From Pseudovirgaria hyperparasitica (Eukaryota), in NCBI GenBank assembly GCA_010093815.1, contig ML996566.1: a DNA stretch of 64,000 bases, one strand, 5' to 3'. Position numbers and translations under genes: made by a program. Positions 14,009 to 36,750 of the stretch are shown one piece after another. The notes beneath the pieces are model-generated. The model did no database searches. It was not told where the DNA came from and was given only the letters and a program-made list of their open reading frames with translations. Numbering within the stretch: position 1 is the stretch's first letter; every line of letters begins with the position of its first letter.

Positions 14009-15397
14009 TGATCCACCCCTAGTCACTCAATCTACCCAACTTTATCATATAGGATGACTCTGGAATGCCATAAACCCAATCAGCCATCGTAATCAGCTCA
14101 TTTGGATTTTCGTTAGCTCCTAGCGTCTAGGCCGCTCAAGTCAGTTTTGCCCACACATCTATGAGCTGAGTTCGCGTGCTCGATATAAATGACTAATCTG
14201 GAACAGCCGTACTTCTCGTAGCGTCACCATCAATTGCGGCGGGAGAACCAAAGCTCAAATAACAACGACACTAGCACCGATAGTGAATTCATCTTCGTCG
14301 TTTGCTTATCAGCATCCTTGTATAGCTTAGACTACGGCGCAAAACGCAGTCTAGTTGCAAGCAGCGCACTATAATCGGTCACTCCATGTCGATTGTCGCG
14401 ATCACAAGTCTGTCAGATGAGACCGAGGTCACAAAACCTTCCAGAAAACCTCTCTACTTTCCTGGAAGGATGTGAAGCTCTTGCTACGACCTTGACACCA
14501 GCACCTACTGGAGCATCGTTGGAGCTGGAGATCAGCAACCGATTCACAAATCCCAATACTCTAACAATTCTACTCACGAGATCGTGGATCACTGCAGGTG
14601 GTTTCATGCGAAACAAACATTGTACAGATAGCCGTTGATGTTCCTGAGCACGATGGCTTTTGCAACAATGTGCCACTTCGAAGACTATGGTCTACCGTAA
14701 CCATAACAAGTACGCAGGTCCTAGTCCCGATATGCTTATTTTGCTCCAAGTGACGGCATGAGTATAACTGTGGCTAAGGCGTGCAGCTGTAAGGCGTGTA
14801 CAACTTTTCAAGCTCCTACAGAGTGACTATGGTTACTGGATGATCCTGATATTCCTACGGGATGATTCTATCTATTGACCCTAAGAGGATTCAGGTGTCT
14901 AGTGTGTCTTCAGGTTAATGTCAGGCGAGCAGTATTGTCGACCTAAGGCCAGCGATTATCCAAAGCAAGGTTCTCAAGCTTTAACGACTTCACAAAGAGC
15001 CAGATACTGGGCAATACATAAGATATAATGTTCTCACTGACAAGCACGACTAATCAGCAGGGTCGTGCCTCTACTTCTACGACATTGCACCTCCCTAAAA
15101 ACTAGAGCGGGTTATACACCTACTCACTGTAGAAGGTTTGCACTTGGTGGGAAAGAGCTTCCTAGCCCATGGTAATGAACCCTCTGTAGCACAATGCGGT
15201 CTTCTAGCTCATCGTCTTCATAATGAACCTTAACATATTCTACATCAATATTCGGCTTCTTCAGCTCCGGCAACTCTCTTTCTTTTACAAACTACCTGAA
15301 ACATCTTATAAGACATATTGAAACCCCGCCAATTTGCATTCTGCCACGCCCCCCTTCGCTCTTAGTCGGTTCGACATTCACTTCTGCCTCACCAGTC

Positions 15398-16945
15398 ATG
15401 AGGGCCTCTCAATCTAAGGATTCCGAAGGACATTCGAGGCCAGATGGGCATCAATTGTATGACCGTCCGATGTCGCAAGGGGCTCATGATAACGACACAT
15501 CGACTTCAGACAACATAGACGTTACCGCCCGTGCGCGGGAAGAGGCGACTTGTCACCGTGATGGGATCTGCGAAGGCAAGAAAGCTGCTGAGGAATATCA
15601 TACTGCTCTAAGATATACAAGCGGACAAGCATCGACCACCTCTGACGCTGGACCTTCGAATATCTTCGAAAGTATCATTGAGCATGGCCCGAATATTCTT
15701 GAAGATGATAAGGGTGGAGTTGAAAGCGAGCATGAGACAATCGATGCTGAGACATTTACGAGGTCTAATACATTCACACCCAGATACGGAGAGCAGCCGT
15801 TGGATAGTATTCAATCAAATACTAGAAAGCGGACGAGACAAAGTCCACATGTGGGCCGATATTACCATCGGAAGCCCCTTGAACAGGACGCGCATATCGA
15901 TTCGTACTTTTCTACCTTTCCTGGTATGACTTCTCCAGGCTCAGTTTCAGCCGATGTCGCACTTGTGAGAAACATTCCTCGCATGCAAGGCGCAGGAGCA
16001 GGCATGATGGCAGTGAAATGCATCGCAACCGGAACACGGATCATGACAGAGGCCCCGGTTTTCACATACGGCATACCTCCAACCGGACTGACGAAGAGCA
16101 ACCAGTCGATATGGATAGATAGATTTGAACATGAGCTTACGAGCGAGTGGAAATTGTTTTCTCACTTATACAATGCTTTTCCAAACATGGGTAGGAAGTA
16201 TGGGACTTTTCATACCAACTCCCTGCCCCTAGGCACGAAGTCCGATGATCCTTGGGGTATGTTTCCTGCCTTCGCACGTCTCAACCACAGCTGCCAAGCC
16301 AATGCTTTCCAATATTGGAACACGGAGCGGCAAGTATACACCCTTCACGCAGTCCGTGACATCGATGCGGGTGAAGAGATAACGATTAGCTATGATAATG
16401 CTCTCAAAATCCGCCAAGACCGGCGAAGAAGATTATGGGGCGCGGCAAGATTCCAGTGCACTTGTCCAAAATGCGATACCCACCCTGATGAGTTCTCGTT
16501 GAGCGATGAGCAGATCATTTCTATCAATACTATCTTCGAAACAGTCATGCGTCATCTGGATGGTCTTCCCAGTCCCCCTTCGGGAGAGATGAGTAAGTAT
16601 TACACATCTGCGGAGTGCCTTCGACTTCTCTTCATAGCCCATGAAATCATTGCAAAGGAGGGACTCGATGGCCTTCCCCTCTTGAAGGCTTCTGAACTCT
16701 CAATGCTTGTGGCAAGAAAAAGCAAGGACCCTGCCAGGACCAGAAAGTTCGCGGAGCGACAAGCAACCATATGGCTGATCCTGACGGGCGACGATAGCAG
16801 CGACTTCAAACTTTACAAGTCAATTGCCAAGAATCCAAGGAAGCACTTCAAGTTCGGGCTGCGCGGCTTTTTCAAAAGCAGTCGGCCTCCGCCGAATATC
16901 AAAAGTAGTCAATCGGATAGGTGGTTGTTTCGAAAGCTGGGTTGA
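15398..16945 (+). CDS. SET-domain lysine methyltransferase (SMYD/Set5-like) with low-complexity N-terminus
   Basis: 515-aa single ORF. GAGMMAVKCIATGTRIMTE, ARLNHSCQAN, HAVRDIDAGEEITISY and post-SET FQCTCPKC. Confidence 0.88.
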   Translation: MRASQSKDSEGHSRPDGHQLYDRPMSQGAHDNDTSTSDNIDVTARAREEATCHRDGICEGKKAAEEYHTALRYTSGQASTTSDAGPSNIFESIIEHGPNILEDDKGGVESEHETIDAETFTRSNTFTPRYGEQPLDSIQSNTRKRTRQSPHVGRYYHRKPLEQDAHIDSYFSTFPGMTSPGSVSADVALVRNIPRMQGAGAGMMAVKCIATGTRIMTEAPVFTYGIPPTGLTKSNQSIWIDRFEHELTSEWKLFSHLYNAFPNMGRKYGTFHTNSLPLGTKSDDPWGMFPAFARLNHSCQANAFQYWNTERQVYTLHAVRDIDAGEEITISYDNALKIRQDRRRRLWGAARFQCTCPKCDTHPDEFSLSDEQIISINTIFETVMRHLDGLPSPPSGEMSKYYTSAECLRLLFIAHEIIAKEGLDGLPLLKASELSMLVARKSKDPARTRKFAERQATIWLILTGDDSSDFKLYKSIAKNPRKHFKFGLRGFFKSSRPPPNIKSSQSDRWLFRKLG

Positions 16946-17723: not shown

Positions 17724-19475
17724 ATGACTGAGAAGGGAGGCTATGAAGAGGCCACAACTCCAGAACCAGCCAATCTCGTCGACGACATGGAGGACGGCAG
17801 CCAGGGCTCGCTCCGCGGCTTTACCCATTCCACATCACAGGACTTGCTAGACATGAAGCGTATGGGAAAAGCTCAACAGCTCATTGTGAGAGCCTCGCCT
17901 CCCGCTGCATCTGCCCCATACTCATATCTTACAGCGTTATTTTCGCACCATCTCAGCCGTGGCATTCGTCAGCCTGGCGACAGTCTCATGGGAACTGAAT
18001 ATCTTGTAGGTTTTCGAGGGTAGTTCAACTTTTCTTGGCTTACCGTGTGCAGCTTCGTCAATCAAGGCTTACGAGATGGAGGGCGTGCTGGTCTTATGTA
18101 CTCACAAATCTGGTGCTTCGTGCTCTTCGGTCCCGTATATCTTTCGCTGGCGGAAATGGCTTCTATGGCCCCCATAGCCGGTAGCCAGTATCATTGGGTC
18201 TCTGAATTCGCTCCTGCTGGTATACAGAAGCCATTGAGCTACATCACCGGCTGGACGTCTACTCTAGCCTGGCAGGCTGGGAATACGGTTGGTGTGTTCC
18301 TCGTTGGTACGCTCATTCAGACTATCATTGCGCTGAATGACCTCGACTATGCACCACAGCCTTATCAGAGCTCGCTGCTCGTCTGGGCAGCCATTGTGAT
18401 CACATATCTCGGAAGTGTGTATGGCATGAGGTGGATGTCAAAGTCATCCATTATTATTTTCGTGCTTCACTTCGCACTTTACCCCTGTTTTCTAGTGCCA
18501 GTGTGGCTTAAAGCACCAAAAGCTACGTCACACCAGGTATGGCTCGAATTCTCCAATCTCGGAGGATGGCAGAACATGACATTGGCTATATTTATCGGTC
18601 AGCTCTCGAGCATTACTGTTCTGGCAGGTATAGACAACGTTGTGCATGTGGCGGAGGAGGTTCAAGGTAATCGTCCATGGTCACCCAATGCGAAGAAGTT
18701 TACTAATGTGCATCTAGATGCATCCAAAACAGTCCCCCGCGCCATGCTCATCACATACCTAGTGAACTGGCTTACCGGCTTCCCAGCGCTCATCACCCTT
18801 GTTTATGCTCTCCCGGACCTCGATACAGCCCTGCTTGACCCCTCCGGATACCCCTTGGTCTTTGTCCTGAGACAGATCATGTCTACCCCAGTCCTGACCG
18901 CCTTCCTCGTTGCCATGGTCTTAATCTTCACCTGCAGCAACATTACATATCTCGTCGGCACGACTCGTGACCTCTTCGCCTTTGCCCGTGACAACGGCTT
19001 GCCCTTTTCCGCGTGGCTCTCTCACGTAAACAAGAACAACCACGTACCTGAACACGCCGTGCGCGCCTCTTCCGTCTTCGCTGTGCTCCTATCACTGATC
19101 TACATTGGCTCACCCGTCGCTTTCTACGCTATCACATCCCTATTCACCGTCGCCATCTTCCAATGCTACATCTTCTCCATCGGCTGCGTGCTGTACCGTC
19201 GTATCTATCTCCCAGGCACACTGCCGCCCGCCAGATTTTCGCTTGGAAAATGGGGCGTACCGACCAATTGCGTGGCGCTGTTCTTCTCAACTTGGGCGTT
19301 CTTTTGGGCGTTCTGGCCACAGACAACGCCGTTCGAGGCCAGTGCATTCAACTGGGCGAGTGTGATCTTCGTGGCGGTCGTGTTGTTGGCCAGTGTGTGG
19401 TATGTCTTCAAAGGGAGGCATCAATATAACGGACCGGTAACGGAGGTAAAGCGCTTAGGGCCCGAGCAGGAGTGA
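17724..19475 (+). CDS. APC-superfamily amino acid/GABA/choline permease (ACT family), 4 exons
   Basis: Motifs SLAEMASMAPIAGSQYHWVSEFAP, HVAEEV, RDLFAFARDNGLPFS and FSLGKWG; about 12 TM. Introns near 17886, 18006 and 18667-18717. Confidence 0.92.
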
Positions 19476-20775
19476 CTGGGTTGCAAGACATATCGAACGT
19501 GGAGGTCCTACTCTTGGACCTGCGTTTTCACATGGCTGGTCTGCATATTGAGGTCGGCGCCTGACCATTGCGCTCTTTTCGGCACACCACTTTCCGACAA
19601 CATACATAAGCCTTTCTACGTAGCGCACTCTCGAATCCTTGTATCTTCCGTCATCTATAGAGCCTCGTCATACCATTCCTGTACAGCCTGATCCTGTGGC
19701 TTGTAAGATACCTTGTGCATACGGGATACGTTGACCGTATTCCGCACGGGCGTGTGGTTGAAAATGTTTTCACGTTATAGATCACTAGAAATGCATTCAG
19801 ACGATCAAAAAATATACAGTGATATCTATTCTGTCAGTATCATTTCGCTTGTGGTGCATGTCTTACGTTTTGTCATCCACGCGTAGACGGACGTATACCA
19901 GGGCATATCTAGTGTTGATCATGACAGGTTGTTCTTCTTGATACTCCTGACGTAACTTTTTCGGAATTTTCACTACCATGCCTTTCGTTGTGGTTGAGAT
20001 TGTGCTTGTGGGATAAAAATTTCTACAGAACGTCTGTGGCTGTGAGCTAGTTTCTCGTGAGACTTGAAGAATTTTCTTTGCAGCAGTATTCTAGAAGTAT
20101 GACGTTCTGGTGGCTATTGTCACTAAAGAGGTAGAAGTGTTTGTGATGCGTAAGATAGCGAGAAGGTGAGCAAAAGGGGTTTGCGTGGAATAGTGTGTGG
20201 TGCTGTTTGGTATATTCTCAGCTGTGTCCTTTTGCGGTAGCTATTTGGTGTATATTTTGAAAAGAACTTAATTGTACCATCTATTCTATCTCGACATGCG
20301 TATGACCCGGTTGCAGCTCGGACTTGGTCCTTGTCGAGCTGGCGTGTGGACTTCTTCTAGACGCGCATATCCTATAACAGACTTCTCACTCTGGTAACCT
20401 GGGCATCTATGTAATGCCTCATCGAAGCAGGTCGACAATTTTGCAAATAAATCTTTCATCCGCTAGAAGTAGAATGATATATAATGTCGATATAAGTTCA
20501 AGGCAGGTCCCTTCATTGGTCAGTCTGACGAAAATTGAGAGACTCATATGTCGAATGGTGAGACCCTGATACAGCCTGCGGTCAGTCAGTAAAGAACAAG
20601 GGGCTCGGCACAAAGAACTGGACATTCGTCGGATGACTCTTACTGTCAAAGGAATAGATACCCGATGAACTTCGGGTAAGATAGGAAATACACGTACCTC
20701 TTATCGCCTTGTGTCAATGAGACTAGAAAGCATTAATTCGTGGGGATCTATTATGTAACTTTCTGCTTTATGCCT

Positions 20776-21527
20776 TCACGCCAATAACTTAGCGCCCTGA
20801 GAAGCGGCCATATATTGCCCACCACAATGTTTGACCATGACTCCCACCGATAATTGCTCTTCTTCTCCCTGCACGTGAACTGGGAAGTAAGCTAAGTGAT
20901 CAAAGCCAAGATGTGTATACAGCTGTTGTCCGAGTGGACTACTGAGAATGGTGACAGGAACTTCATGCTTATGCGCCAAATTCATCCCCCAACGGCAATG
21001 TTGAGAACCAGCACCACATCGCTGGAAGTCCGGGTGCGTTCCCAGAATACGGAGATGAATTTGTTGGTCACCATAGACATGGTCGAAATACTCAGTCTTC
21101 GCCTTTAAGGTGGCATTGTCGAATGCGTCCATCCGTTTGGGATCGGCATCTCGGCGAGGAGCGCATTTGACTGGATTGCACGTCAAACCTGGAAATATAT
21201 TGTGCAGGTCATGGTTTCACAAGACATACCAACATCCGTAAAAGTGCTGGTTTTTTCATAGTGCAGTTCCCATACAGCGAGTGCTATTGGCCGCTCATAC
21301 TCCTTGCCTTTGATCTTGACCGGTGTGGTGACAACGTTTATACAAACGCCTTTTTCCTTCAGCATAGACTCACACATCTCACGCGTGGCCTTATAGTGGT
21401 CTTCTGGATAGTCCTTGCGGCGCGGAAAGCGGTAGTCCCACTGCGGATCCGCAGGAAAGGCGGCACACATGATGGTGGCTAGATGATCGAGATCCTCATC
21501 CGTGGCAGTGCGGAGATTCAGATGCAT
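20776..21527 (-). CDS. GNAT family N-acetyltransferase, 2 exons
   Basis: AAFPADPQWDYRFP. Acetyl-CoA binding motif LGTHPDFQRCGAG. SSPLGQQLYTHLGF. Intron 21229-21189 joins the two ORF-track frames. Confidence 0.88.
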
Positions 21528-22242
21528 GCTGATGTGTTTGAGGCTAGGAACCAGAGATCCTGGAAGAGAGACTTGAACGCTGAGGGACCGCCGAATGAGC
21601 TGTATTTTACATTGAGGGTGGCGGACAGCGACGTTGACAACTCATCCATGTGTGCTCAGCTGTTTTCCTGGCATTGTAAACCATGCAATTTGTCCCATGT
21701 TCTAGACAAAGTCCCCGTTCGTTGGAAGTTTTGATGCCGTTTACCTGATCGGGACCAGCGTGAAATGCGGCGTGAAGGATGCGATACACATTGCAGGCGA
21801 GCCCGATCTATCGGGGCCGGCTAGGCGCGTTTTATTACTCACTAGCGCAGTTGAAATTAAAGCGTCCTAGAACGTATTCCATATAGCATATCTATTTAAA
21901 GTCATAGCGTAAATTACGAGTCTGGAGCATACCAGATCTTTACCACTTCACGCTTAGTATCTTTCAACTAGCGCTGGGTAGGTGCCTAACTAAGCACGAA
22001 ACGGGATGACGTGGCTATGTTAGTATATTACATGATACATAACGTGATTAGCGTCAGCGTTACCCGACTGAGTAAATCTGCCAGGGTTGTTATCGCCTAT
22101 TCCCCGTTTCCAGCACATTTCATTTGTCCATTTGCCATTCCCAACTCACACACGCACATCTTCATGACTTCTGCCCCTGAAGGACCCTTTTCGCATCCGT
22201 TGTTCATTGATCAAGCATGTGCCGTACACCCGAGACATAGCC

Positions 22243-25034
22243 ATGGCCACTTCAATGGCCATTGGAAGGCTTATCACTCCCTGGGATCAAGCCGCCTCCG
22301 AGCTGGGCCAAACCCACGATGCTCATGACATGACCGCTCTCCAACAGGACAAACGCCCGAGGAGCCAGCTGAGATATACTGCATCAACTCCATCGGATTT
22401 GCCGTCGTCGCTCCCGTGTCGACGCCTCTCAGCTGCTGCTACTGAAGCGGCCCATGCAGACGGCCATATTGCGGCTCCGGCTACGCCTTTGTCGGAGCTA
22501 CAGGCCGGTTACCAAATCCAGATCCATCACCGTTCGCCCTACGCAAAGCCTTCGCTCCACCACATCCACCATGCCGGATTCCGATATTCTGACCACACAG
22601 CATCGTCATGTGCTCATGGTTGTGCTGACCTTGAGAAATACGTTCCACAGCATGGGCCGGCAAACCATGCCACCGAGGGGTCTCCAGTAAATGCCTCCAT
22701 TAGAAACGCTAGCCTCCACTCCCGCCTTCGAGACACCACCACTTCCTTGGACGGCTATATTGATGATCCTCGCGCAAGCCATGATCATGTACGCCAAGAA
22801 GTAAATACATCATCTGCCCCAGAAGTACAAGACGCTCACGGCACACAATGCCCTTTGATAGGATACAGGGATGTATCAGATAAAGACGCACAAGACATCC
22901 GTATTCCAAGTTCAGACATATATCTTCATCAAGCGCGAACAAATGGATCTAGCACATCCGCTAATACAGGGTCGGGCCTTGCCGAGATTCACGCCATACG
23001 ACCCTTTGTCTCCACTTTTAAAGGTTCAGGGTGTGTTGGATCTCCGCAACGAGATACAGATAGCTCAACGACACATCATCATGCACAAGTCTCTGGATTT
23101 CTTAATGATGTGTCGTACAAGGGCGTGCTGCCGTCTGATAGAGCATGCCTTGTCAATACATCATCACCTTTAGATGCACGGCAGAAGCCTAGAGGTATCA
23201 AACCCGGCAAAACTTCGACCCAGGTGGAACAACTCGTCTTGAAAACCGCTATAGATGGCCAAGCCGCGATCCATGTACCTCCAAGAGATTCTCGCTCTTC
23301 TAGTGGCGCTTCGCCATTTGTATCACGAAGTCTATCTCAGTCAGCATCGGCCAATAGCACGTCAAGCCTGACACCCAGGGCAGCGACAAATAATGGCCTC
23401 GCAGTGTCCATAGTCCCCAAACGTACACACAAGAAATTTCTCTCTCCCGGCTCCGTAGGTCTCTTGCTATCTTAGTAGTGCGAACATAAACTGATCGAGT
23501 CAAGATTGTCAAGCACGAGTACATGCAGAATGATCCAGGTCAGGTTCAAGGACTAAATCTGGTGTGGGCTGCATCTGCACGACCAAGTAAGCGGCTCAGC
23601 GAGGAGCAAAAGGCACAGAGAAAGAAGAAAAAGGAGACCGGAACATGCCCCAGATGCAAGAAGCTTAAGCGGGTGGTAAATTAAACTACTGCGATTGGTC
23701 GAGATACTTTACTGACATAGCGATAGTGCGAAGAATATCGTGCCAACCTGTATCTGCCGTGTGTGTACTGCATGACTTCCAAGCCCAAAAGTATCACAGA
23801 AACCTGCCAACTTGTGGCCAATCTGCTCGAGATCAAGTTTTTTCGACTGGGACCCCCTACCGATAACTCCTCACATCCGCTCAATTTCTTTCGACACCGC
23901 TCGAACGTATTTAATGTTACGAATGATCCCTTAGCCGAAACTCTCAATATAGAGCTTACGCAAGATGTGGGCTGTTCACTCCATCTCAAGGTCTCACGCT
24001 TCGCCGCAGACCCTAATGATAAGCTTGCATATGAGGGCAACACGCGAGGTGTTCCATATCGGCTTGAGATGCCTCCATATTGCATTGGCGATATCGCTGC
24101 GGCAGAGAGAAGCATAGTACAGTACATGATACAGGCCAAAGGCAGCTACTTCCTGCAATTTCTTGACAAGTCCAATTCATTGTTGCGTATGACTTTTGAC
24201 ATCATCTGTAAAAGACCCATGACGTCCCTAGTTCATAAGGCAATGGACATCTGGGCCGCTACGAGACTGATCGAACGAACTTGGAAACTTTGTGGCACAG
24301 AGACATTTGGTATACATCCAACCAACAGAGACGATGATCCGTGGATCGGACACGTTCCTGTAACACCTATAATGGACCAGCAGCTTGATCAAGTCGTAAT
24401 TCAGAAAATATTGCGACCGCGTCGAGGTATATTGCTACGAGAGCTGAAGTTGAGAATGTATAGCGATGACTTGCGCAAGAAGAACATGTTCGATATCTAT
24501 CTTACCCTTCTCATACTTCTTAATAACGCAGAAATGCACTTGGCGGGTGAAAGAGAGTTTGCTCTGCGATACGGGTTTGGAGTAAGTACAGAGTCGAGTT
24601 CTACGCATTACGGGATCTAAAAGCGTCACTTTAGGGGAGATATGGACCTTTCGGCAAATACAGAGATGCGCAGGAGCAGTTCCATGCTGCTCGTACTATG
24701 CTGGGTCACTTCCATTATATCTGTCGCGCTAATGACATATTCGATATGACTCCAGACTACTTGTCTAAACATCTAGCTTTGACAACCATGGAGGTACAAT
24801 ACTTAGCATGGCTGAAAACCTATGTGAAGACCGAAAGTAAGATGGCTTTGATCATCTTTGGCGGCAGTACACAAAGCTAACACTAAATCTGCAGAAGTGA
24901 ATATGGCTCTCATCCGGGAGCAAGATCAATACGAGACCACGGGATACTGGTTTCATCAGATGTTCGACAAGCAATGGAAGCCTGGCACAGGTTACATCAA
25001 AGAAATCGTCGAGAAGGGTGCCGTTGTACGATGA
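22243..25034 (+). CDS. Zn-cluster-like transcription factor with internal, non-canonical Cys6 motif, about 5 exons
   Basis: Spliced motif CPRCKKLKRV|CEEYRANLYLPCVYCMTSKPKSITETC, preceded by basic KAQRKKKKE. Downstream domain with PPYCI, PVTPIMDQQLD and C-terminal YWFHQMFDKQWKP. Introns approx 23455-23504, 23676-23726, 24582-24634, 24837-24894. Start codon uncertain. Confidence 0.75.
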
Positions 25035-25233
25035 CACTACATATAGAACGACAATTTAGTCTTGTGGAATATGTGAAGGGAGTGTTGAGCTATTGAGTGA
25101 GAAACATCAAACGACCGATATACCTCGAGGCAACATATAGCACTCGCATAACTGGGTCTGCATAACATGCGTCTGTCTGGATATGACAACAACGCCGAGA
25201 TCAACCCGACCTGATCGATATGTGACAGTATCC

Positions 25234-26711
25234 TCAAGAGCAAGTCGACTTATGTCCAATGACACGGTCTTTTTCTGTGTCTTCGGGTCGCATACGCCAC
25301 TGAGCTCTCGCACGCCTCACTGAGTCCCCGTACACAAGGTGCCATTCTCTTGCCAACTCTTCAGGTGTATCCCAAGCCCTTTCTTCGTTCCTGACCCAAA
25401 GTCGCAGGATATGGCGTCTATGGTCTCCGACTTCAGCATCGGTGAAAGCATTCCGACCGTGGAGCACGCCCAAATTGTTGTATAGGAGCATATCGCCAGG
25501 TTTGAGAGACATGGTGATCCCAGTCTCCTCGGCGACGTAATGGATCATATCCAAGGCCTCTGCTTGCTCTTCACTCATGGCCGGAAGGCTCTGAGACAAG
25601 GGGTAATGCTCTGACCCCGTAATCTTCTGTCGACTGAAACAGAAGAAGGGACCGTGTTCTTTCTCCCCAAAGAGAATGGGCCTAGCATGCCAGACCTCAG
25701 GTGGCTTATCTCTATTATGAAAGTCAATCATGATGATATAAGTTTCGGCAAAGATCAGACACTTACTTATCGTAGACCCAGATGGGTGCCGCGAGTGTGT
25801 TCACCATGTCAGGGCGACTTGCCGCAATTCTATTGTAGACTGTGGCCGAGGAAGCAAGTGTGGACTCTCCACCATTGGCCGCACTATCTTGGATATACAT
25901 GCAAAGTATATCACAGACATCGTTGTGATATGGTAGGATTCCACCAGTGAAAGTCGGAGTACGTTTGCTACACTTTCCAAACTTGAACCCCATGTCGACC
26001 AGATGGGCTGTACACTATTAGCGCCCAAAAGCACTGCTAGGACACTACTCACTGAGCATGTTTCCAAACCTATCCTGACAGCCCCTTTGCTCTCCGATGT
26101 GGCTTGCAATTCCAGCAAACAGCAAGACGTTATCGGTGGCAGAGTAATTTTCAGGATTAAGCCCTCGCAAGATAGTGATACCACGACCAGAGTGGAGATC
26201 CTTGGATATCTGTTCCAATTGAGCACCATACTTGGGTAGCGGAAATAGCTCCTTTGACATCTGATCAGGGCCGTTATTGCCTGGGAGATCTATTATTGTA
26301 GTCAATTGGGTACTCCAGTAACAGACTGCGCGAAGCCGACGTACCTTTGAAGTACTGGAGGGCCGCCTCGACCTCTGCAATCTCATCTTTGGTTAGTTCG
26401 GTGATGAGAGCATCGACTCCCCCGATATCTCTTCCATACCAGACCCTAGGTCCGGTAATCGCACGGGGAAAGCCTTTGGGCAGCGGCTCATTCACATCTC
26501 GAGTTGCCTCAAGACGCTTTACTCGCGCCTCGAAATCAGCTCTATCGGGCTCAAACTTGATAGATGGTCGAACAACTTCGATAGAGTCCTCGGGGGCTTG
26601 CTTTGACTTCATGACTTGGTCTTGAGGAAGCGATGCAAAATAATGACCGCGTAGTCCAATGGACATCTCCGGCGCGGGGGAAGGAGACAAGAGCATGGTT
26701 TCGGGAGCCAT
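25234..26711 (-). CDS. TauD/TfdA (clavaminate synthase-like) 2-oxoglutarate-Fe(II) dioxygenase, about 4 exons
   Basis: HxD motif ILPYHNDVCD. GGESTLAS. Distal His in LKPGDMLLYNNLGVLHGRNAF, then RHILRLW. N-term LPKGFPRAITGPRVW. Pieces lie in ORFs 26274-26828, 25801-26229, 25763-25993 and 25234-25731. Confidence 0.9.
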
Positions 26712-27481
26712 GGTGAAATAGCAATAAACTATGAATGTGCTAGTATCACGTTCTAAAGTCGTGACTGGAGGTTTTGGTGTGGAAGGCTTTGCTATGACTT
26801 GCAAGAACGATGGACCGCTCCGACTCAATGCTCATTTATATACTTTTGAATGAGACTCGACTCTCCTAGACTTCACCGTGGCCCCACAAACTACCCCTCC
26901 TTGCTTCTCTGTCATTTAGGCCGGCCTAGTAGTAGATATGGTGTTCGGAATCTTGTCCTACCCAATAGGCGAACAAGGAATCTATTTCCAACACCTCATC
27001 GCTAGGGGTTTCATGCACCCACAATGCAGAGCAAATCAACAAACACATGGACAGCCCGGAGGCACCGAACTATCATGTTGCTTCGTTATACGAATCCCGA
27101 CATGTGAGCTAACGAGACATATCATCTCATGATAAATCGTGTGTTCCACTGCAAACGAAGTCGAATCTAGTAAACGGATCTATGCTGCTGTGACCCTGGC
27201 TCTGATCTCCACATACTCCAGATCAATGATGAAGCTACCTAATCATAGAGCACCTAGACTCATGATTGGTGTTACCTTGGGTCAAAGGATCTCGGACCCT
27301 TGAGATGGTGACAGAAGTTTGTTGGGATGTAGTCGCCATGTCTGGCCGACAGCTCTGAATCTTGTCAGTATATTAACATGTCTATTGGTCCACCCGCAGA
27401 AGAATTTGGCTCGATGCATCAAACTCAAGCACTGAGGCCCTCCCATGTCAACAGTTTCCAAGTCGCAATCACAAGACCACG

Positions 27482-29298
27482 ATGGACTTAGCAGCATCCG
27501 ATGTTGACTTGCTATGCCAACCCACAGGTGCATTTGTCGATATCGAGGACTACCTTCATCGAATCAACACCGTCACAGAAGGACCGAAAGACCAAAGTTT
27601 GCTACGTGCTTTCGATGTTGACAGCAACTCTCCACTCCACCAGAGCCGTCAAAATGGAGAACACAACGGCCGTTGGCGACTCGACGGCATCGACTGCCAG
27701 GGCACCCAAATCTATATTGTCCCTCTCTTCATCCACCACCCAGCCCCCAAACGCATCGATTTGTTCATCCCGCCCCAGCATCGCTACTCACCTGGACTCC
27801 GTGAATCCCTCGATGCCGCATGGGCATTCTGCATCCGCGACTCACGGGTCAACACTCTTGGCATCGCTGAGTATGTTATTACTGCGCTTGAACACTGGAC
27901 TAATGCTATCGGGCCGGATGCCGTGGAGCGGTTATGGACCGACGCTCCGTTTGGCAGTCGATTGGTGCTTGACCGTATCTCCGCCAGTGTCTTCGACACA
28001 ACGATAAGATTCGTCAAAGAATTTGACGTTGAGCGGCAGATGCTTTCGTTTGTACAGCTACAGTCCATGTGGAAGCTGCCCCACCAGGATATCCCTGACC
28101 CAATCAGCTTGGACGAGCTACGGCTGCTCGGACAGCTGCATGATACCGTATCTTTAGTCATGCTACCAACGAGTGTAGGAGGTAAAAAGGCAATATTCAA
28201 GAGTTCATTACATGACGTCAAGTACATGTATCATGAGCTGAAGTTGCTGCTGACTATGCGGCCACATGTGAATGTGATGTCAAAGCCTTGGCACCTTGTC
28301 ACTGTCAAAGATCGGTACGGTGGTGATGACAAGACTGTTGGCTTCATCCTTCCATTCTATGAGCAGGGAAACTTAGCAGATATAGTAAGCTACAGGAAAG
28401 GTTTAGGCACCCTCGAACTGAAAGATCAGTTCCGATGGGCAATGCAGATTGTTGTGGCACTCAGACATGTTAAGACAGGACCGGCGAAGTTTTACTCCGA
28501 ACTCAAAGCGGACAACTTGCTACTTGACAACGACGATAATGTGGTACTCATAGACTTTGAGCAGATGGGTTCGTATCAGAATACTACCCATGTCACTAGC
28601 TGACTGTACTAGGAAACTGGGCCACATACAGTGCCCCTGAGATCCACTACGTCGAGTACTGCAAGCGCCTCAGCAAGTCGCCACATGTGCCAGCTGCGGA
28701 GCAGAAACGATACAAAGCAATACTAGAGAGCCATGTCGGTCTCACCCAAGATCCAGATCCGACATACGATAATCCTGTCAATGGATACTATACTGCTTGG
28801 ACAACTCTGACTCCTGAAGAACAAGAAGCTGCTGAAGTGTTCTCTCTTGGTATGGCTCTTTGGTGTATCTTTGAAGGCTGTGCCGATACGCGGAACTCCG
28901 TACTCAAAGCATTCAGATATGACTCAGAGCAAGAGTTTCCAGAGTTTTGGAGGTCTCCTAACGCAATCAGGAAGTTGATTTACGACTGTACACAAGGATT
29001 CAGGAATAGTGACCTAGGCAGAACACGAATAATCCGGATCAACGACAAGGTATATCCGAGAGGACGCAGCGGCGTCAATGGTGAGCCAACCGGGACCGCG
29101 CTAGAGGCGGCAGTCGCGGCTCAGCAAATGTGGAAAGAACGAGTCGCAGCCATGGAGACCTTCTTAGACGCGAAGGCAAGATGGAAGAGAGGCGAGCGCA
29201 ACAGGGGTGATGAGCAATTGCTAGGCTTCATGAATCGGCCAAAGCTGCAAGAAGTCCAGCACAGACTGTTTGAGATTCAGGCTGGTATTTCCCAGTAG
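27482..29298 (+). CDS. Fungal protein-kinase-like protein with atypical catalytic loop, 2 exons
   Basis: AIFK (beta3 Lys), YHELK (alphaC Glu), FYSELKADNLLL, VLIDFEQ. Intron 28569-28612, then GNWATYSAPE and EVFSLGMALWCIFEG. Confidence 0.85.
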
Positions 29299-29340
29299 TA
29301 CCACATAGATCATAATTCCTGGTTCAACGCAATAGTCAGC

Positions 29341-29972
29341 TCAACTCTTCACTTTGAATGGTAAACCCTCCATCTCCTCCTTCGTCCAGTACAACATCAT
29401 GTTTTCTGCCTTTAACATTTGTACCTCCTCATCCATATGCCGCCAGAGCACCTCTCCAAACCCGTCCATCTGCCTCTTGATCTCCACCAGGTCGACTTCG
29501 ATCTTTTCCTCCCTAGCCCATGCCTTCAAGTACTCGTGTAGCGTATCAAGTCCTGTGTGAATCTCGCGATGCTGCGCATAGATCTCTGGCCTAGTCTTGC
29601 AACCCTTCTGATCTATAGACGGCTCGGAGAAGTCCGGTCTAAACACCGGCATCTTCATGCCAAGCTTTGGAAACACATGCTCTTCTTCCAACGCATGATG
29701 CCTGTCAAGCGCGGCGCACCACTCTAGAAATTTGCCGACATAGGCGCCTGGAGTGATGTCGCTGGGGAGCCTTCCAGCATTGCAGATGCTGAGGAGCTCG
29801 GTCCAGGTCTGGCGAAAGCCTTCGTGCTGCACGGGGGGTGGTGAGTGCCGGTGTGCATCACAGGATCTCGGGGCGCGGGACCTACGAAAGCGTCCATGCC
29901 GACCGCCATTTTGTTGAACAGACGGTATTCATAGCTGGTCAGGTCTTGCGGGGCTTGTGCAAAAGTCGCCAT
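29341..29972 (-). CDS. Hemerythrin/HHE cation-binding domain protein, 2 exons
   Basis: MDAF|HEGFRQTW; HHALEEEHVFPKL; QHREIH; LWRHMDEEV. Intron approx 29882-29829. Confidence 0.9.
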
Positions 29973-32100
29973 ACCCTTGAGGCGGGATGTTTGTATTTTG
30001 TGCAGTCATGTTTTAAGCTGCCAGAATTGCTGTTGATATAGTTGTGATTTCCCAAATAGGCTAGATCCGGAACATCATGGCGGATTGTGGAGAATTGTTC
30101 GCAGCGATATGGTTGGCAGAGAAAATGAACGAGCGTGGCACAGTGGGAGACAGGGAAGCCCTTGTCTTCGGGGCTGTAAGTGAGGGACGGGAAGACAGGG
30201 GCCGAAATGGACATGGGTGCGATGATCCCCCGGTCAACGCTTCTCTCCTCACTTGAAATCATACATGCAGGTATGATTATAGCCCTGTCGAGTGCATGAG
30301 ATTTGCATCTTCGGATTGGAAGACCTGGGAGTGCTCAATGTTGGCGAGTCTTGGGACGCGGGAGAGTAAAAAGAGACCCCAGGATCATGATCACGACTCA
30401 GAGTACCAGTCAAACAGAGTTGCCTGCTGATCGCAAGAGCTGATTCATATTGGCTGCACGAAAATACATATGCACTGGTGCTGTGAGACGTGCGTTGATC
30501 TCTCCGCATTACAGCACGCTTCGATATGCAACTTCTCTGACTCGCATACTTACAACGTCGTACAGTAGCGTGCATCCATTCCGCTTGACATAGAAGAGTG
30601 TGATGGCAGAGATTGGGATTTTCATGCAAGCCAGAAGCAAGTCAAGCTCGACCGCTCAAAACTCCTACCAATCAAGTCAATCTAAAGGTGTTCGGAGATA
30701 GCTCCTAAGCCTTTGAGCCATTCAATGAGGCTCTGTTTAGATTCCTTGCTTATAATGGCTTACTATCAGTATTTCAGACTTTCCAAGTGGGTCTCAGTCA
30801 GATACCTGGGTGCCCAAAGCCAAGCCCATACACCACTTTTCTACCTTCTTAGGCTTATCTATTTTACACATATGGATAGGCATTTAGAGGACTCTAACTT
30901 CGATTAATCTAATATCACTGGCGGAGAGGTAAGGAGGTCAATCTCAGGTGTTGTAGTGAGACGAGACCAGGATGCAACTTTAGGTGCCGCTCGTTCCTTA
31001 TGATATCTGTGCTCTGATAGTTATGGACCTTAAAAATGAGGTTTATGCTTTTAAGAGCGGCCAAGTCGGTGTTTAGTTGTCACAGCTGTTTATAGAGAGT
31101 ATTACCACAAGTATTATCCTGGACCCACTAAAGATGAATGTGTAATTGATAACAGCGACCGTAATGCCACAGTGATCCTGATAGAACGTGCCCGGATTTC
31201 AACGGCTGATGATTCATCTGTCAGGTTGTAACTTTCGTCGATGTGAACCTGACTAACAAGATGGTATGAATGCGTATATCCTCAGATCTCTTAGCTACGG
31301 TGCGTTTGAGTCTTATGGCTGATCACTTAGGACGAACTCGTCTTGATACTGTGGAAGTATTGACTCATCTAACTAACTGGGACTTGACTGATGTTTGGTC
31401 GAAGGCATAGTCTACGATACGTCCAGAATCGAGATAACTTTGATTTCTTCACGCTTCTGTCGGTTCATAGCTCCGACGCCCCTCAATACAGCGATCCTAT
31501 ACTCCTGAGCGGCATTGTCTAGACAGGGCCGGGAAGTGTTGAAACATCGACGATACTAATGCTGAGGTTATGAAGGTGATCATGACAACGACCTTTAATC
31601 TACTTATAAACACTATTTATATCTGTCAGCTTATAGGCTCAACTATCTTCTCAGTGCAGCAGCAGTGTCGACGACTCCTTTTCACATAACCTATAGATGA
31701 AGATGGGCTGGCACTGGGCGCGTGCGTCCTTTACGCCTATTACATGCATATGTTTCTCACTTCTCATTCTCTACACTACGAATCAGCTAAATATATCCAA
31801 ATCATCTATGTGATGATCCTTATTCCGATGTCGACGTGATTCGCAAAACTGTCGTGGGTTGGCGAAGAATTCTTATCGCTTGGCTGTGGCGCTGGTGCAC
31901 GTGCACATCTTAGCATTCCAAGGATTACGCAAGTCATACTAGAGCTTAATCAAGGTTAGTCCGCCTGCTGCTGCCTTGCGATCTTCCATGTTCACGTTGT
32001 TCATTCGACATCTGTGCGAAGCCCACGAATGCAACTTGGTGATTGCCTGCTGCTCGTGCCACCTTGCCGATATGATGGCAATACTTAAGGCCGACTCATC

Positions 32101-34359
32101 ATGTTCGACTTTAGCCCCGATGATAAGAAAAAGTTCTACGAGGACCTAGAAAACTTGGATAAGACCGACAGTGAGCGCGAAGACGAAGGCCATTTAGAAT
32201 CGATACGACTCTTGAGGGGTAGTCCAACGCATTTGTCAACTTCTCGTGGATCTTTTACTGGCCGTCGAGTCGCTAGAACGTTGACGGCGTTCGATCAGAA
32301 TGCTCACAGAGCAATTTCGCGTGAAAGCAGTTCTAGACATTTCCCACTCTCCCTTATTCGATCACAGTCGGAACCTCAGCCTATGCAACCTCAGATATCG
32401 CTGAGTCATCCTCGAGAGAAGTCTGTCTCCTTCCGGCATCTTGGTTTGAAGAAGAGTGCCTCAAGCTCTTCGTTGTCTTCGAGAGAAATGGCGCCTGCAT
32501 CCAAGTCAATTCATGAAAAAGGCAAAGGGAAGAAGCGTTCGAGGCCGACGCAGGAAATCCAGCTAGCACAAATATTTCAGGGCCTCGTTTTCTTTTTTGT
32601 ACCAAACAACACTCACAATAATGCGCGTAGAATGAGAATTGAACTGGCACAGAAGAGAGGCGCAATCTGGGCAAAAGAATGGTCCACGGCTCAGATCACC
32701 CATGTTATCGCTGATAAAGACGTCAAATATGCTTGGCTTCTAAGCCACCTTAATTTGACTGAGATTCCAGTATGTAATATGTGATATCAAAATCTGCATT
32801 AGACTGACTGGATATGGTAGTCCAATATATCCGTTGTTTCGGAGCACTTCATACCCGATTCCATCGCTGCAGGGCTGCAGGATCCTGCGAGACCTCGGTA
32901 CAGAATCGAAGGTCAAGTTGTCCAACCACCGAATCGTACTGCAGTAGAACTGCCTGCGGAATCAGACAGATCACTGCAAGTCAAGCCTGCAAAGAAGGAT
33001 GTCTCACTCACTGGTCCAGACACCCAATCTACAGTCGTGGCCAGCAGCATCGGTACTGCAGTTCTACATGACGCCTTAAATGATTCAACTCGAGCAAGCA
33101 AAAGTAACAGGAATCAGGCGCAGTACAACGATGAATTAGCTCAGGTGATCAAGGAAACTAAACCCTTTGCCCATCTTCCGCTTTCTGACGAGTCCGATGA
33201 CGCGGGGGCTGACCAGCCTGACGATTTAGACCACGAAGAAGGCCCACCTAGGAAAGCACCCAGACTCGATATTGCAAGTGAGGCCTCGGTCGACAAGTGG
33301 CAAAAGTCATTTCAGTGCATGCACAAGAATGAGGGTAACCTGGAGAGACAAAATCCTAATGCATATACTATAGGCATTCTGTCAGAAATGGCTCAGTATT
33401 ATGACAATGGTCATGACGACTTCAGACTCATGTCATATCGGCGAGCTGTTGCGTCTCTGCAGAAGTGTGATACGCTGATTACAACCAAGGATCAGGCTCT
33501 TAAACTTGGCCGAGTTGGCCCAAGTATTGCAGAGAAAATTGAAGAGATTGTGACAACTAAGGGACTTCGCAAACTCGAAAATGCAAAATCTGATCCTCGC
33601 GAGGTCGCAATCCAACTGTTTCTAAGGGTCTACGGATGTGGCAAGGCTTTGGCTGAGGAATGGTATGCAAAGGGATATCGAACTTTAGAAGACCTCGAAA
33701 AAGAGAAGCTTACGAGCAATCAACGCATCGGGGTCGATCATTACGAAGACTTCAACACCCGCATACCACGTGCGGAAGTAGAAGCTCATGGAAAAGTTGT
33801 AATGGATGCTTTGGAAGTAGTCGCTCCTGGGTACAAAGCAACGATCATGGGTTCCTATAGACGTGGCACAAAAGACTGTGGAGACATTGACATGCTCATC
33901 ACGAAAGAGAACACCGCCGTCGAAACCGTCGCAACAGTCGTATTTGAGCAGCTTGTTCCGTACCTCACAGAAACCGGGTTTCTTGTCGCAAGTCTCGCAA
34001 CGCCACACGCCAATGGAGGCACTAAATGGCATGGGGCATCGTTGCTACCGGCATCATCCCTTCCGTCTGGCTCAAAACCCCTATGGCGCCGTATAGACTT
34101 CCTCGTTGTGCCAGAGTCGGAGATGGGTGCCGCACTCCTGTACTTCACCGGAGATGATATATTCAACCGTAGTATGAGGTTACTTGCCAGCAAGAAAAAG
34201 ATGCGCTTGAACCAGCGTGGGCTATACAAAGATGTCATCCGAGGACCAAACCGGGAGAGACTTACAGAAGGCACGCTTGTTGAAGGAAAAAGCGAGCAGG
34301 GTATCTTCGAGGCCTTAGGCGTACCCTATAGGCCTCCCCATCATCGCATCTGCGGATAG
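32101..34359 (+). CDS. POL4: DNA polymerase X family (Pol lambda/Pol4) with N-terminal BRCT domain, 2 exons
   Basis: BRCT-like IFQGLVFFF...THVIAD. Intron 32770-32820. Nucleotidyltransferase GSYRRGTKDCGDIDMLIT, RRIDFL, AALLYFTG and NRSMR. Confidence 0.92.
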
Positions 34360-34579: not shown

Positions 34580-36202
34580 CTAAATTCTCTTGAACTCTAA
34601 TTTCCTCGCAAGCCAACATCCAATCGTCACACCCTCCACATCTCCGTTCTCATGGCGATGAACTACAATTGTCCAATCTCCAGGTGCTGGCGCGTCCATA
34701 CCACGTGGACACGCCATTAACCATACGTCTTCGCCCAAATAGCGCATCAAATGCGGCGGTCCCCGCCCCATGAAGCCGTCAAAGCTCGCATACAATATCC
34801 CACCCTCGCCCACGAACTCAACAGTACTCCCAATCTCATCACATCGGTAAGAGCCCTGTACGCGCGCTAGGTTGGGATCTGGGACGCCGGTGGGAGATTG
34901 CTTGATGCGCCGGGCGGCGGCAGTGAAGTTTGCCATAGGGCGAAATATGTGGAGTGTATCTGCAACGATGCTTGCGTGGATACCGGTGGATTGTGCAGTG
35001 GTATTGGAAGTTAACGGGATTGTTTCCGACCCTCCTATCATGGAGATCGTGATGCTGCTTTCATTGGAGACGATGACGATGCTAAGCTTGCTTTCGTCAT
35101 CCAAATAAGCCCCGGCCCACAACTCGGATGGCTTGATCGATGCTGGCTTCACGACTTCGGGTTTGGCGAGGAGTTTACCCATCACATACTCTGATGCAGT
35201 GACAGCATTCGCCATGTGATTTTGCATGACGACGATGGATAGCCGATGGGACGGTGCATATAAACGATTTAGTTTGTAGCCGCGCAGACCACCGCTGTGG
35301 CCAATAACAGGTACGTCTTGCACGTCCCAGTGAACCAGACCCATTCTATAGCCTGACTTGCCACCAGACTTAAAAGGGACTGTTGTACCTGCTGATTGCG
35401 CCCAGCTTGATGACTGCGTCCAGTGCTGGTCAAAGTACTTTTCGTATGCGATCATATCCTCGAGTGATGCAACGATGCCAGCGTCACCGGCCCATTCGAT
35501 ATTGTTCTCCGCTGGCAAGTAGCCTCGTAGCTCATCACCTTCGTAGCCAGTGCCAGGGCCCGGTCGTTTCGAGGCATCGGGAATCAGTTTTGCAGTCTTC
35601 ATACCGGCTCGTTCGAAGACTCGCTCTGCGATGAGATCACCGATTTCTCTTCCCGTCACCCTTTCGATAAGTCTGGCAAGTATGTTGAAATTTGTGTTAG
35701 CATAGGAATATCCGTTGCCTGGCTCGAATTGGAACGACTTAAGAGCATCGAGCGCCAGAGTATTGTGCTTTGATATGGAGTAATGTGTTACTGGTCTGGC
35801 TCCGAAGAGCGTGCCTAGCGCCCAGTAGTCACGAATACCGGATTGATTGTCGCACAGATGGTCGACAGTCAGCCCAGTATCTTTTACGATGCCAGGGTGG
35901 AGAAGGGTGCTCATCTCGAGCTGCACCCGCTTCTTGAACTCGCCCTTGGCTACCATCTCCGATGGCGGGTTCTCATTCAAATCATGGAGAGTTGCACAAA
36001 GCATCTGTTTCGAAATTGAACATATGGGTAAAGGTGTTGTTGATTCCATTAGAACGCCCTTGTCCATGTCGGCGTAACCCCATACATAAGTGTCGACGAG
36101 TTCTCCATCTTTAAGCACTGCTGCAGCCCCTCCAGGTCCGCGGAATCGACCCGACATGTCAATGAGGGCCTGCCTCACTGCTTGTGGTGTGATTGAGACC
36201 AT
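34580..36202 (-). CDS. D-stereospecific aminopeptidase (peptidase S12, beta-lactamase fold with C-terminal DAP-type domains), intronless
   Basis: SxxK CSISKQM, YxN YSYANTN, GHSGG, QSGIRDYW, and C-terminal PRGMDAPAPGDW resembling the DAP domain-C loop. ATG taken at 36202 (MVSITP). Confidence 0.88.
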   Translation of the reverse strand: MVSITPQAVRQALIDMSGRFRGPGGAAAVLKDGELVDTYVWGYADMDKGVLMESTTPLPICSISKQMLCATLHDLNENPPSEMVAKGEFKKRVQLEMSTLLHPGIVKDTGLTVDHLCDNQSGIRDYWALGTLFGARPVTHYSISKHNTLALDALKSFQFEPGNGYSYANTNFNILARLIERVTGREIGDLIAERVFERAGMKTAKLIPDASKRPGPGTGYEGDELRGYLPAENNIEWAGDAGIVASLEDMIAYEKYFDQHWTQSSSWAQSAGTTVPFKSGGKSGYRMGLVHWDVQDVPVIGHSGGLRGYKLNRLYAPSHRLSIVVMQNHMANAVTASEYVMGKLLAKPEVVKPASIKPSELWAGAYLDDESKLSIVIVSNESSITISMIGGSETIPLTSNTTAQSTGIHASIVADTLHIFRPMANFTAAARRIKQSPTGVPDPNLARVQGSYRCDEIGSTVEFVGEGGILYASFDGFMGRGPPHLMRYLGEDVWLMACPRGMDAPAPGDWTIVVHRHENGDVEGVTIGCWLARKLEFKRI

Positions 36203-36750
36203 CTTCAGACTAGTGAATGTCGGACAGTACACAGTCGCGGGGTAACTATTGAACAGATTAGGGGGAGATATGTGAAGAAGACGATATAGCGATAGAACCA
36301 GACAGCCAACAATCGCAAGTTATCGCATGTTCGCTCTCGTTGTTAGCCACCAGAGAAGTGAGGTTCGGAGTGAGGGGCAAGGTTACAGTGGTGGGGAGGG
36401 CAACATGGTGCTTTGTATGCGGAGTCCGGTCTTGGCGAAAAGAAGCTGCAGGATATCTGAAAGAGAGACATCACGTCCAGCGGAGGACTGGAGTGAACAT
36501 AGAAAAATCTTCCACACCCAGAATCTCCCATGATGGGTCGATGTTGCTTCCCAAATCAAGAGGCAATCTGGTAACCCAGCGCTGGCTTCGACCATGAAAC
36601 GCGTAAGAATGTTCCGCTACCGAGTGGTGTTATTCTCCGGACACCCGTTTTTGGCGTGTCCAGGAAATTGTGTTACACGCTGATGATTTGCTATGATGTT
36701 TGCTCCTCCGTTACTGCTACTACTCATCACTCGTGCTCAAACCTGCGAGA

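Follow-up and report, generated by a model that had tools for sequence, protein, structure and literature searches.

The window analysed here is a stretch of 64,000 nucleotides from the fungus Pseudovirgaria hyperparasitica (C2:633074-697073 of a 35.4-Mb genome assembly). At positions 20776..29972 it carries a block of five genes, encoding a GNAT acetyltransferase, a Zn2Cys6 transcription factor (TF), a TauD-like Fe(II)/2-oxoglutarate (2OG) oxygenase, a protein with a protein-kinase fold and a hemerythrin-domain protein. An earlier interpretation of the letters (hereafter the sequence-only reading) had proposed a five-gene metabolic island without a backbone enzyme. Our work shows that the conserved unit is not this five-gene set: it consists of a KpeA-type TF and a FrbJ-like TauD oxygenase, often joined by the kinase-fold gene and sometimes by GNAT. 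The TF and oxygenase genes stay linked from genome to genome and were duplicated as a pair. The kinase gene often joins them as a third partner, GNAT (in other lineages an amidase) recurs as an addition, and in many modules the oxygenase and kinase genes share an upstream motif. The best explanation is an old and compact regulatory module of Pezizomycotina with a small-molecule signal at its centre. In the form that we favour, with a probability of roughly 0.45, the oxygenase would make or destroy the ligand of the TF, and the kinase or pseudokinase would be a regulator at the protein level and not a metabolite kinase.

The unit emerges from gene neighbourhoods. Scanning metagenome contigs with the kinase alignment yielded 125 confirmed relatives, the best 80 of which were kept as loci; merging kinases at least 95% identical left 66 non-redundant loci, many on short contigs. 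Profile searches at the 80 kinase loci detected TauD at 28, the TF at 26, GNAT at five and hemerythrin at none (in 41 of the 66 non-redundant loci, the contig reached 1.5 kb or more beyond the kinase on its downstream side). The non-redundant set comprises 25 loci with TauD and 21 with the TF (both in 15, either in 31), and four with GNAT. Where both flanks extend for 8 kb or more (12 non-redundant loci), the TF is present in 10/12, TauD in 7/12, GNAT in 2/12, and neither TF nor TauD in 2/12. By a hand estimate from three TFs and five TauDs in 35.4 Mb, a random 20-kb window would contain one such TF or TauD with a chance of about 0.2-0.3%, so that the linkage of TF, TauD and kinase lies far above chance. 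The 15 loci with all three genes display nine gene orders or orientations, which argues for selection for linkage and not for passive synteny. Kinase, TauD and TF also have consecutive accessions in Neocucurbitaria cava (KAJ4367025/26/27) and Aspergillus lucknowensis (KAL2869467/66/65), and in Neocucurbitaria sp. VM-36 their locus tags follow one another. The idea of a cluster kept without a backbone enzyme therefore stands for the TF, TauD, the kinase and partly GNAT, orthologues of which are linked elsewhere; it falls for hemerythrin and is unsupported for the upstream permease. The three gene trees are congruent, the kinase, TF and TauD trees having clades in common. Pairwise distances are correlated between kinase and TauD (rho 0.52, n=29), kinase and TF (0.61, n=23) and TauD and TF (0.78, n=17), each with p 0.001.

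The P. hyperparasitica genome itself encodes one kinase of the family, three KpeA-type TFs and five TauDs of the subfamily. All three TFs converge on a TauD of the same subfamily: in the window, at C9:782-786 kb and at C4:1887-1894 kb. TF identity is about 22-33%, with the C4 TF at about 22% even to its closest relatives in our set. The C4 module repeats the window layout (GNAT<- ->TF-><-TauD) without a kinase, and the C9 module has a divergent amidase and neither kinase nor GNAT. The other two TauDs of the subfamily lack an adjacent KpeA-type TF. As TF and TauD pairs are kept without the kinase, they form the oldest core, with the kinase as frequent third member and GNAT or amidase as add-on. 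We also noted that an Amidohydro_2 gene (C4:1894295-1895367, L026) adjoins the GNAT of the C4 module. The window GNAT has its nearest unlinked paralogue at C3:1144750-1147619 (43% identity; L020 and L021), and that gene converges on a different kinase-like gene with weak Pkinase and Kdo matches, a second pairing of a GNAT with a kinase-like gene.

The window's genes and promoter spacers are the following (aa, amino acids; UTR, untranslated region).

21527-20776, minus strand: GNAT acetyltransferase, 230 aa, exons 21527-21230 and 21170-20776; recurrent accessory member.
20575-20696, minus strand: intron in the GNAT 3' UTR, from RNA contigs.
22243-25034, plus strand: KpeA-type Zn2Cys6 TF, 859 aa, exons 22243-23454, 23505-23675, 23727-24581, 24635-24836 and 24895-25034; core member.
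26711-25234, minus strand: TauD/clavaminate-synthase-like Fe(II)/2OG oxygenase, 440 aa, exons 26711-26345, 26289-26053, 26007-25767 and 25711-25234, predicted from homologues; core member.
27482-29298, plus strand: protein-kinase-fold gene, 590 aa, exons 27482-28568 and 28613-29298; frequent third member.
29972-29341, minus strand: hemerythrin (HHE) domain gene, 190 aa, intron 29827-29885; neighbour, not a member.
17724..19475, plus strand: amino-acid permease (AA_permease_2); neighbour, membership unsupported.
21528..22242: GNAT/TF spacer of 715 bp with divergent promoters; no CCAATCA and no GAGCCKC.
26712..27481: TauD/kinase spacer of 770 bp with divergent promoters; one CCAATCA at 27263-27269 on the minus strand, no GAGCCKC.

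The five genes are intact, and their places and orientations agree with the sequence-only reading: there are two divergent pairs (GNAT/TF and TauD/kinase), the hemerythrin gene converges on the kinase gene across 42 bp, and about 200 bp separate the convergent TF and TauD genes. Pfam searches on exons or proteins recovered TauD at 102 bits (cut-off 27) and hemerythrin (PF01814) at E 4e-8, and the Pkinase and GNAT matches fell below their family cut-offs. The term 'island', which the same reading had used, is unsupported, since the block has the GC content of the window (49.4%) and its flanking gaps (1.3 and 2.1 kb) have a usual size for a fungal genome of this kind. The left spacer is mostly covered by 3' UTR contigs of the permease and GNAT genes. 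A compositional island and borders eroded by repeat-induced point mutation were both considered and rejected, the block showing no signal of either.

Splicing was read from contigs of two public runs on one sample, runs that are not recorded as RNA and in which GT..AG joints are seen. Spliced joints confirm all four TF introns and those of the kinase, hemerythrin, permease and GNAT genes; the GNAT intron of our first model (21189-21229) was replaced by 21171-21229 on this evidence. From RNA contigs starting at 22139 and 22182 we infer the TF start codon. For the three predicted TauD introns, no spliced joint was present in the contigs of this one sample, which does not imply that TauD is silent. 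Because these introns were not seen spliced, the TauD model rests on homologues that are 57-74% identical in the alignment. The contigs run unspliced over the entire TauD gene (24895-28567), while the adjoining TF and kinase introns are spliced; transcripts of the plus-strand TF 3' and kinase 5' regions may overlap TauD in antisense, or TauD may be low in this sample. The co-expression put forward for testing in the sequence-only reading is seen only in part: there is spliced RNA for GNAT, the TF and the kinase in this one sample, and none for TauD. The 3' ends of the GNAT and permease transcripts meet (20277-20696), and in one run both lie on a single contig.

The TF has a low-complexity N-terminus of about 400 aa and a zinc cluster in mid-protein, after about 450 residues. 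Its six-cysteine motif, C-x2-C-x6-C-x10-C-x2-C-x11-C, is split by intron 2, whose splice junction is confirmed by RNA. No Pfam Zn_clus match was obtained in the window TF, probably because of the long last cysteine loop. A C-terminal PF27566 domain (named KpeA) is found in all seven homologues searched, which are 33-56% identical to the main exon of the window TF, and by this homology we assign the window TF to the KpeA type; over the same exon it is 26% identical to the Sordariomycete-like TF. In a confident model of the C-terminal domain of the N. cava TF, Upc2 ligand-binding domains rank first and third among fold matches, with weak scores (Z 7.2 and 6.7); the match covers 167 residues at a root-mean-square deviation (rmsd) of 4.5 A and 10% identity, and the model has an extra beta-rich subdomain preceding the helical part. 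An Upc2-like ligand-binding domain is, on this modelling, a lead and no more. A complex prediction for the N. cava kinase and TF C-terminal domain, made without alignments, scored 0.00 and bears neither way. Between GNAT and the TF, L029 (2640-3209) and L031 (3523-4125) share an open reading frame (ORF) of about 190-200 aa without a Pfam family, which could be a gene of its own or belong to the TF as a 5' exon.

The window oxygenase retains the H-x-D...H iron triad and the 2OG-binding Arg (HND, LHGR and RLW motifs). The triad is kept in 28 of 29 TauD rows, the exception being a database model that skips that stretch. By sequence, the nearest solved structures are 7N7V (E 8e-38) and FrbJ (5EQN; E 5e-31), far ahead of other chains of the TauD family; they are the only strong structural relatives and have the same triad. 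At about 30% identity, this similarity would give no substrate. We take 7N7V to be TtnM of tautomycetin, and both enzymes to be small-molecule hydroxylases that differ from the window protein in being tailoring enzymes of Streptomyces antibiotic clusters, FrbJ presumably in that of FR-900098. Relatives of TauD were found at two loci in 185,579 prokaryote genomes, and their neighbours gave no lead. In L038 (512-877) and L054, a fragment lies upstream of a Glu-type kinase, in the place expected of TauD; it resembles what we assume to be AsaB/CmcJ-type oxygenases, with no Pfam match.

A word search over 700 bases upstream of the genes, with 80 roughly defined control promoters, yielded two motifs. 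GAGCCKC occurs in 11/15 TauD and 23/45 kinase upstream regions against 10/80 controls, and CCAATCA in 6/15 and 22/45, respectively, against 11/80. Among held-out genes, GAGCCKC is found five times upstream of the C4 TauD and once upstream of the C9 TauD, and nowhere upstream of the two TauD paralogues that lack a TF. The protein that recognizes GAGCCKC may be Crz1 or the KpeA-type TF.

The protein-kinase-fold product belongs to the eukaryotic protein kinases (ePKs) by structure. Its AlphaFold2 model (pLDDT 89.5) matches Csk with Z 21.7 and an rmsd of 2.7 A over 234 residues, and the 50 best fold matches are all ePKs, with no aminoglycoside phosphotransferase (APH) or choline kinase among those 50. 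Residues K240, E252, N345 and D358 are invariant in 36/36 kinase rows, and P371 and E372 are present in at least 90%. The DFG stretch reads D358-F-E in the window protein. Throughout the family, by inspection, a QLHDTVSLV-like stretch stands where the GxGxxG Gly-rich loop would be. In the window kinase the catalytic-loop Asp is replaced by Glu340; among 70 non-redundant rows this residue is Asp in 58, Glu in nine (including the window) and Asn in two, with one row not covering it. A change of this Asp to Glu or Asn cripples ePKs, and the window protein is a probable pseudokinase or weak kinase. The proposal that it phosphorylates a small metabolite fits badly with both its fold and Glu340. The N-terminal domain (about residues 55-205) matches only its own family; fold searches returned no known fold for it, which implies neither absence nor novelty. 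In 185,579 prokaryote genomes there were 26 pattern matches to the family, none confirmed, and by these searches the family appears to be fungus-specific.

In the reading that we favour, the KpeA-type TF would bind a small ligand through its Upc2-like C-terminal domain, and the oxygenase would hydroxylate this ligand or a precursor, making or removing the signal. A feedback loop could run through the shared GAGCCKC, bound by the KpeA-type TF family or by Crz1 and driving both oxygenase and kinase. GNAT or the amidase might determine whether this signal compound is N-acylated, and the compound would then probably be an amine, amino-acid or amide derivative. The target of the kinase would be a protein (the TF, the oxygenase or something further downstream); in the window's clade the kinase would be an ATP-binding pseudokinase or a very slow kinase. 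The output could be control of development or of secondary metabolism, in line with reports on KpeA and CRG1.

Two known systems bear on this proposal. In A. oryzae, deletion of KpeA alters conidiation genes and kojic acid (PMC11121810), and in Trichoderma guizhouense the Zn2Cys6 protein CRG1, whose A. nidulans orthologue is AN4197, represses conidiation (PMC12232718). As in the window TF, the Zn2Cys6 cluster of KpeA and CRG1 is described as lying in mid-protein after a low-complexity N-terminus, and in CRG1 an intron adjoins the stretch encoding the DNA-binding domain. Membership of CRG1 in the KpeA-type family is a lead, the two having been set side by side by description and not by sequence. 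KpeA differs in being described, in the available text, as a stand-alone global regulator without a stated link to an oxygenase or kinase, and the window TF is a relative at the distant paralogue level. The kinase has a candidate counterpart in FfkF (AN4196), an unclassified kinase with a patchy, fungus-only distribution, for which NCU03250 is listed as orthologue (PMC3591445). NCU03250 has 634 aa and no Pfam domain, and lies by number near NCU03246 (Cdc14), NCU03245 (Pcc1) and NCU03244 (WD repeat) (PMC6838226); it is barely expressed, at 0.05-1.6 reads per kilobase per million (RPKM) in one data set (PMC4399147). At our Sordariomycete-like loci, Cdc14 adjoins the kinase family in L090, L093, L100 and L108, with Pcc1 and WDR5 next in L100. 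The proposed likeness to FfkF/NCU03250 consists of the Cdc14/Pcc1/WDR5 neighbourhood, the length and the position beside a Zn2Cys6 gene, AN4197 being one number from ffkF. FfkF has been studied alone, and the window kinase differs by belonging to a Glu-substituted clade. In Neurospora, NCU07745, the named CRG1 orthologue, adjoins NCU07746, which is no part of the module, and CRG1/AN4197 is not tied to NCU03250 by number.

Several observations weigh against a ligand-sensing module. Neither TF nor TauD is present at 35 of the 66 kinase loci; most of these are on short contigs, although 8 kb or more is available on each side of L082 and L093. In the P. hyperparasitica genome the kinase is missing from two of the three modules (C4 and C9). 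Tree congruence and correlated distances are also expected from shared descent alone. On the side of the ligand, a Z of 7.2 for a helical domain falls in the range that the fold-search tool calls a common arrangement, and Foldseek returned no match to the N. cava TF model at E <= 0.001. The feedback loop is affected by the absence of GAGCCKC from the window's TauD/kinase spacer and by its frequency upstream of TFs, where 10 roughly placed held-out windows contained four sites in 16 kb, against 0.36 per kb, and hence no enrichment. Furthermore, the motif was picked from the same data, the loci are related and some TauD and kinase promoters overlap. As GAGGCTC is a published Crz1 site of Aspergillus (PMC2873923), GAGCCKC need not show autoregulation. 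Deletion of ffkF is viable with no phenotype (PMC3591445, PMC5307856), which counts here if the kinase family is FfkF/NCU03250, as gene order and length suggest. Finally, transporters, amidases and a nearby GNAT fit plain detoxification equally well.

The relationship between GNAT and the kinase is where detoxification is best considered. GNAT homologues, for which comparison with solved structures gave one weak match, adjoin the TF in L029, L031, L066, L075/L076 and the kinase-less C4 module. All five GNAT-bearing kinase loci (the window, L029 and L031; L066 and L076) have a non-Asp kinase, compared with none of the six Asp-type TF and TauD loci with room for a GNAT, even at relaxed thresholds (L041, L052, L056, L067, L085 and L106). 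In a kinase tree that left out 25 Asp-type rows, the Glu and the Asn kinases each make up a clade of their own with good support; a tree joining them was rejected by the approximately unbiased (AU) test (p-AU 7e-6), and the phylogeny indicates that the catalytic Asp was lost twice, the two clades arising separately. The GNATs of these clades are not clearly sisters. That GNAT presence tracks Asp loss is suggestive and not shown, with two independent events only; this repeated pairing is a natural experiment on the passage from kinase to pseudokinase. The sequence-only reading had a single metabolite being hydroxylated, phosphorylated and acetylated; kinase and GNAT look more like alternatives than consecutive steps. 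One possibility is an inducible detoxification or catabolic cluster, in which the TF would sense a foreign amine, amide or phosphonate-like compound that TauD hydroxylates and that is then given a phosphate tag (Asp-type kinase) or an acetyl tag (GNAT), or cleaved by an amidase, and exported. The distribution of GNAT and the separate origin of the Glu and Asn clades favour it, as do amidase, MFS and POT genes at several loci (amidases in L054, L059, L062, L063, L067, L081 and at C9; MFS in L029, L031 and L037; POT in L032) and the FrbJ-like oxygenase. We nevertheless regard it as unlikely. Only two Asp losses are independent; of the two modules without a kinase, C4 has a GNAT and C9 has none; and no transporter is a constant member. 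The ePK fold, with neither APH nor choline kinase among the 50 best matches, does not suit the phosphate tag, and Glu-type kinases remain about 40-53% identical to the window's across classes, which would hardly be expected of an enzyme that had been replaced.

The absence of a backbone enzyme from the window holds, in that its ORF list, read by eye, contains no polyketide synthase (PKS), non-ribosomal peptide synthetase (NRPS), terpene synthase or dimethylallyl tryptophan synthase (DMATS). A Pfam scan of 80 selected neighbouring ORFs (75 from metagenome loci and five from the window's genome, and not all ORFs) likewise detected no PKS, NRPS, terpene synthase or prenyltransferase. A biosynthetic cluster that makes a secreted compound from a primary metabolite by hydroxylation and acetylation or phosphorylation could still be imagined: a TF is embedded with an oxygenase and an acetyltransferase, the distribution is patchy and paralogous, TauDs of the Glu clade share a highly conserved substrate-binding stretch in the alignment, and KpeA affects kojic acid. 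We find this rather improbable, since the invariant core has a single small-molecule enzyme, the accessory enzymes vary by lineage, the neighbouring ORFs offer no backbone domain, and in the Sordariomycete-like loci housekeeping genes surround the kinase and TF, and no TauD lies closer to the kinase than 10 kb. The kojic acid cluster (kojA/kojR/kojT) likewise combines a TF with one oxidizing enzyme and no PKS, NRPS or terpene synthase; the module differs in having no constant transporter, a kinase-fold gene, several ancient paralogous copies per genome and frequent reshuffling.

The hemerythrin gene is single-copy in the genome, and the C4 and C9 modules have none. As it is also absent from the 80 related loci, hemerythrin is rejected as a member of the cluster, and the main support for an iron- or oxygen-sensing unit, as the sequence-only reading had also suggested, is gone, hemerythrin being linked to neither kinase nor TF. 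Another route to oxygen or iron sensing would have the oxygenase hydroxylate the TF protein, as PHD does HIF, and the kinase and GNAT would modify that protein further. The tightest co-divergence is indeed that of TauD and TF (rho 0.78), the pair is kept without the kinase, CCAATCA is enriched (22/45 kinase promoters against 11/80 controls), and the Upc2-like domain would agree with it. We consider this quite improbable, as the oxygenase falls in the TauD/clavaminate synthase (CAS) fold group and hemerythrin is unlinked. To our knowledge, characterized TauD/CAS members act on small molecules and the known protein hydroxylases belong to other groups. For ligand sensing proper, the closest comparison is with the sterol-sensing Zn2Cys6 factors Upc2/Ecm22, the best, weak fold match of the TF C-terminal domain (10% identity). 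We know of no clustering of Upc2 with the enzymes making its ligand.

Each of the three families (KpeA-type regulators, an unclassified fungal kinase and FrbJ-like oxygenases) has so far been treated singly, and the module joins them. Conserved clusters of kinase, TF and oxygenase are not a recognized class in fungi and are missed by backbone-based tools. We found no description of this linkage in the open-access papers searched, nor any in the available parts of PMC7232168, PMC10888127 and PMC12394161. If the identification by gene order holds, AN4196/AN4197 in A. nidulans and NCU03250 in N. crassa make the idea testable with existing deletion strains. It is tempting, although doubtful, to go further and imagine an operon-like signalling system of filamentous ascomycetes that has escaped recognition, in which a ligand-gated KpeA-family TF, an oxygenase making or breaking the ligand and a dedicated kinase would be inherited, duplicated and reshuffled as a unit, each paralogous module having its own signal. 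In at least two lineages the kinase would have become an ATP-binding pseudokinase and the covalent switch would have passed to the acetyltransferase. The ligand would be a novel hormone of fungal development, and FfkF and KpeA/CRG1 would act in one pathway.

Some neighbours recur without being part of the unit. HET-domain ORFs were found by clustering near 8/80 loci (L031, L032/L033, L034, L039, L041, L065 and L085), five of them Pfam-confirmed, and an NB-ARC/TPR gene lies beside the kinase in L054. With RIPK and IRAK kinases among the fold matches, a module for non-self recognition or cell death, placed among het and NLR genes, comes to mind. This is highly improbable: HET genes are abundant in variable regions of these fungi, those at our loci vary in side and distance, none lies near the window, C4 or C9 modules in the stretches read, and the RIPK matches are generic ePK matches. 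The sequence-only reading suggested that the permease might supply or export a substrate. In L031, and by eye in L029, a permease of the same family does stand beside GNAT, but the window copy is not the orthologue of the one in L031, ranking about 11th among genome matches of the L031 permease (30-40% identity against 50% for the best), and its membership finds no support.

Elsewhere in the window, a SET-domain gene (15227-16945) and a DNA polymerase lambda gene (32089-34359) flank the region. A single long ORF at 34580-36319 encodes a bacterial-type enzyme, a D-aminopeptidase with Beta-lactamase and DAP_B domains (E 3e-62), and a further GNAT-like ORF was noticed by eye at 47330-48076. At 54785-60645, genes that we take, by eye, to encode a phenylacetate 2-hydroxylase-like P450, a fumarylacetoacetate hydrolase and a homogentisate dioxygenase presumably form an aromatic catabolism cluster.

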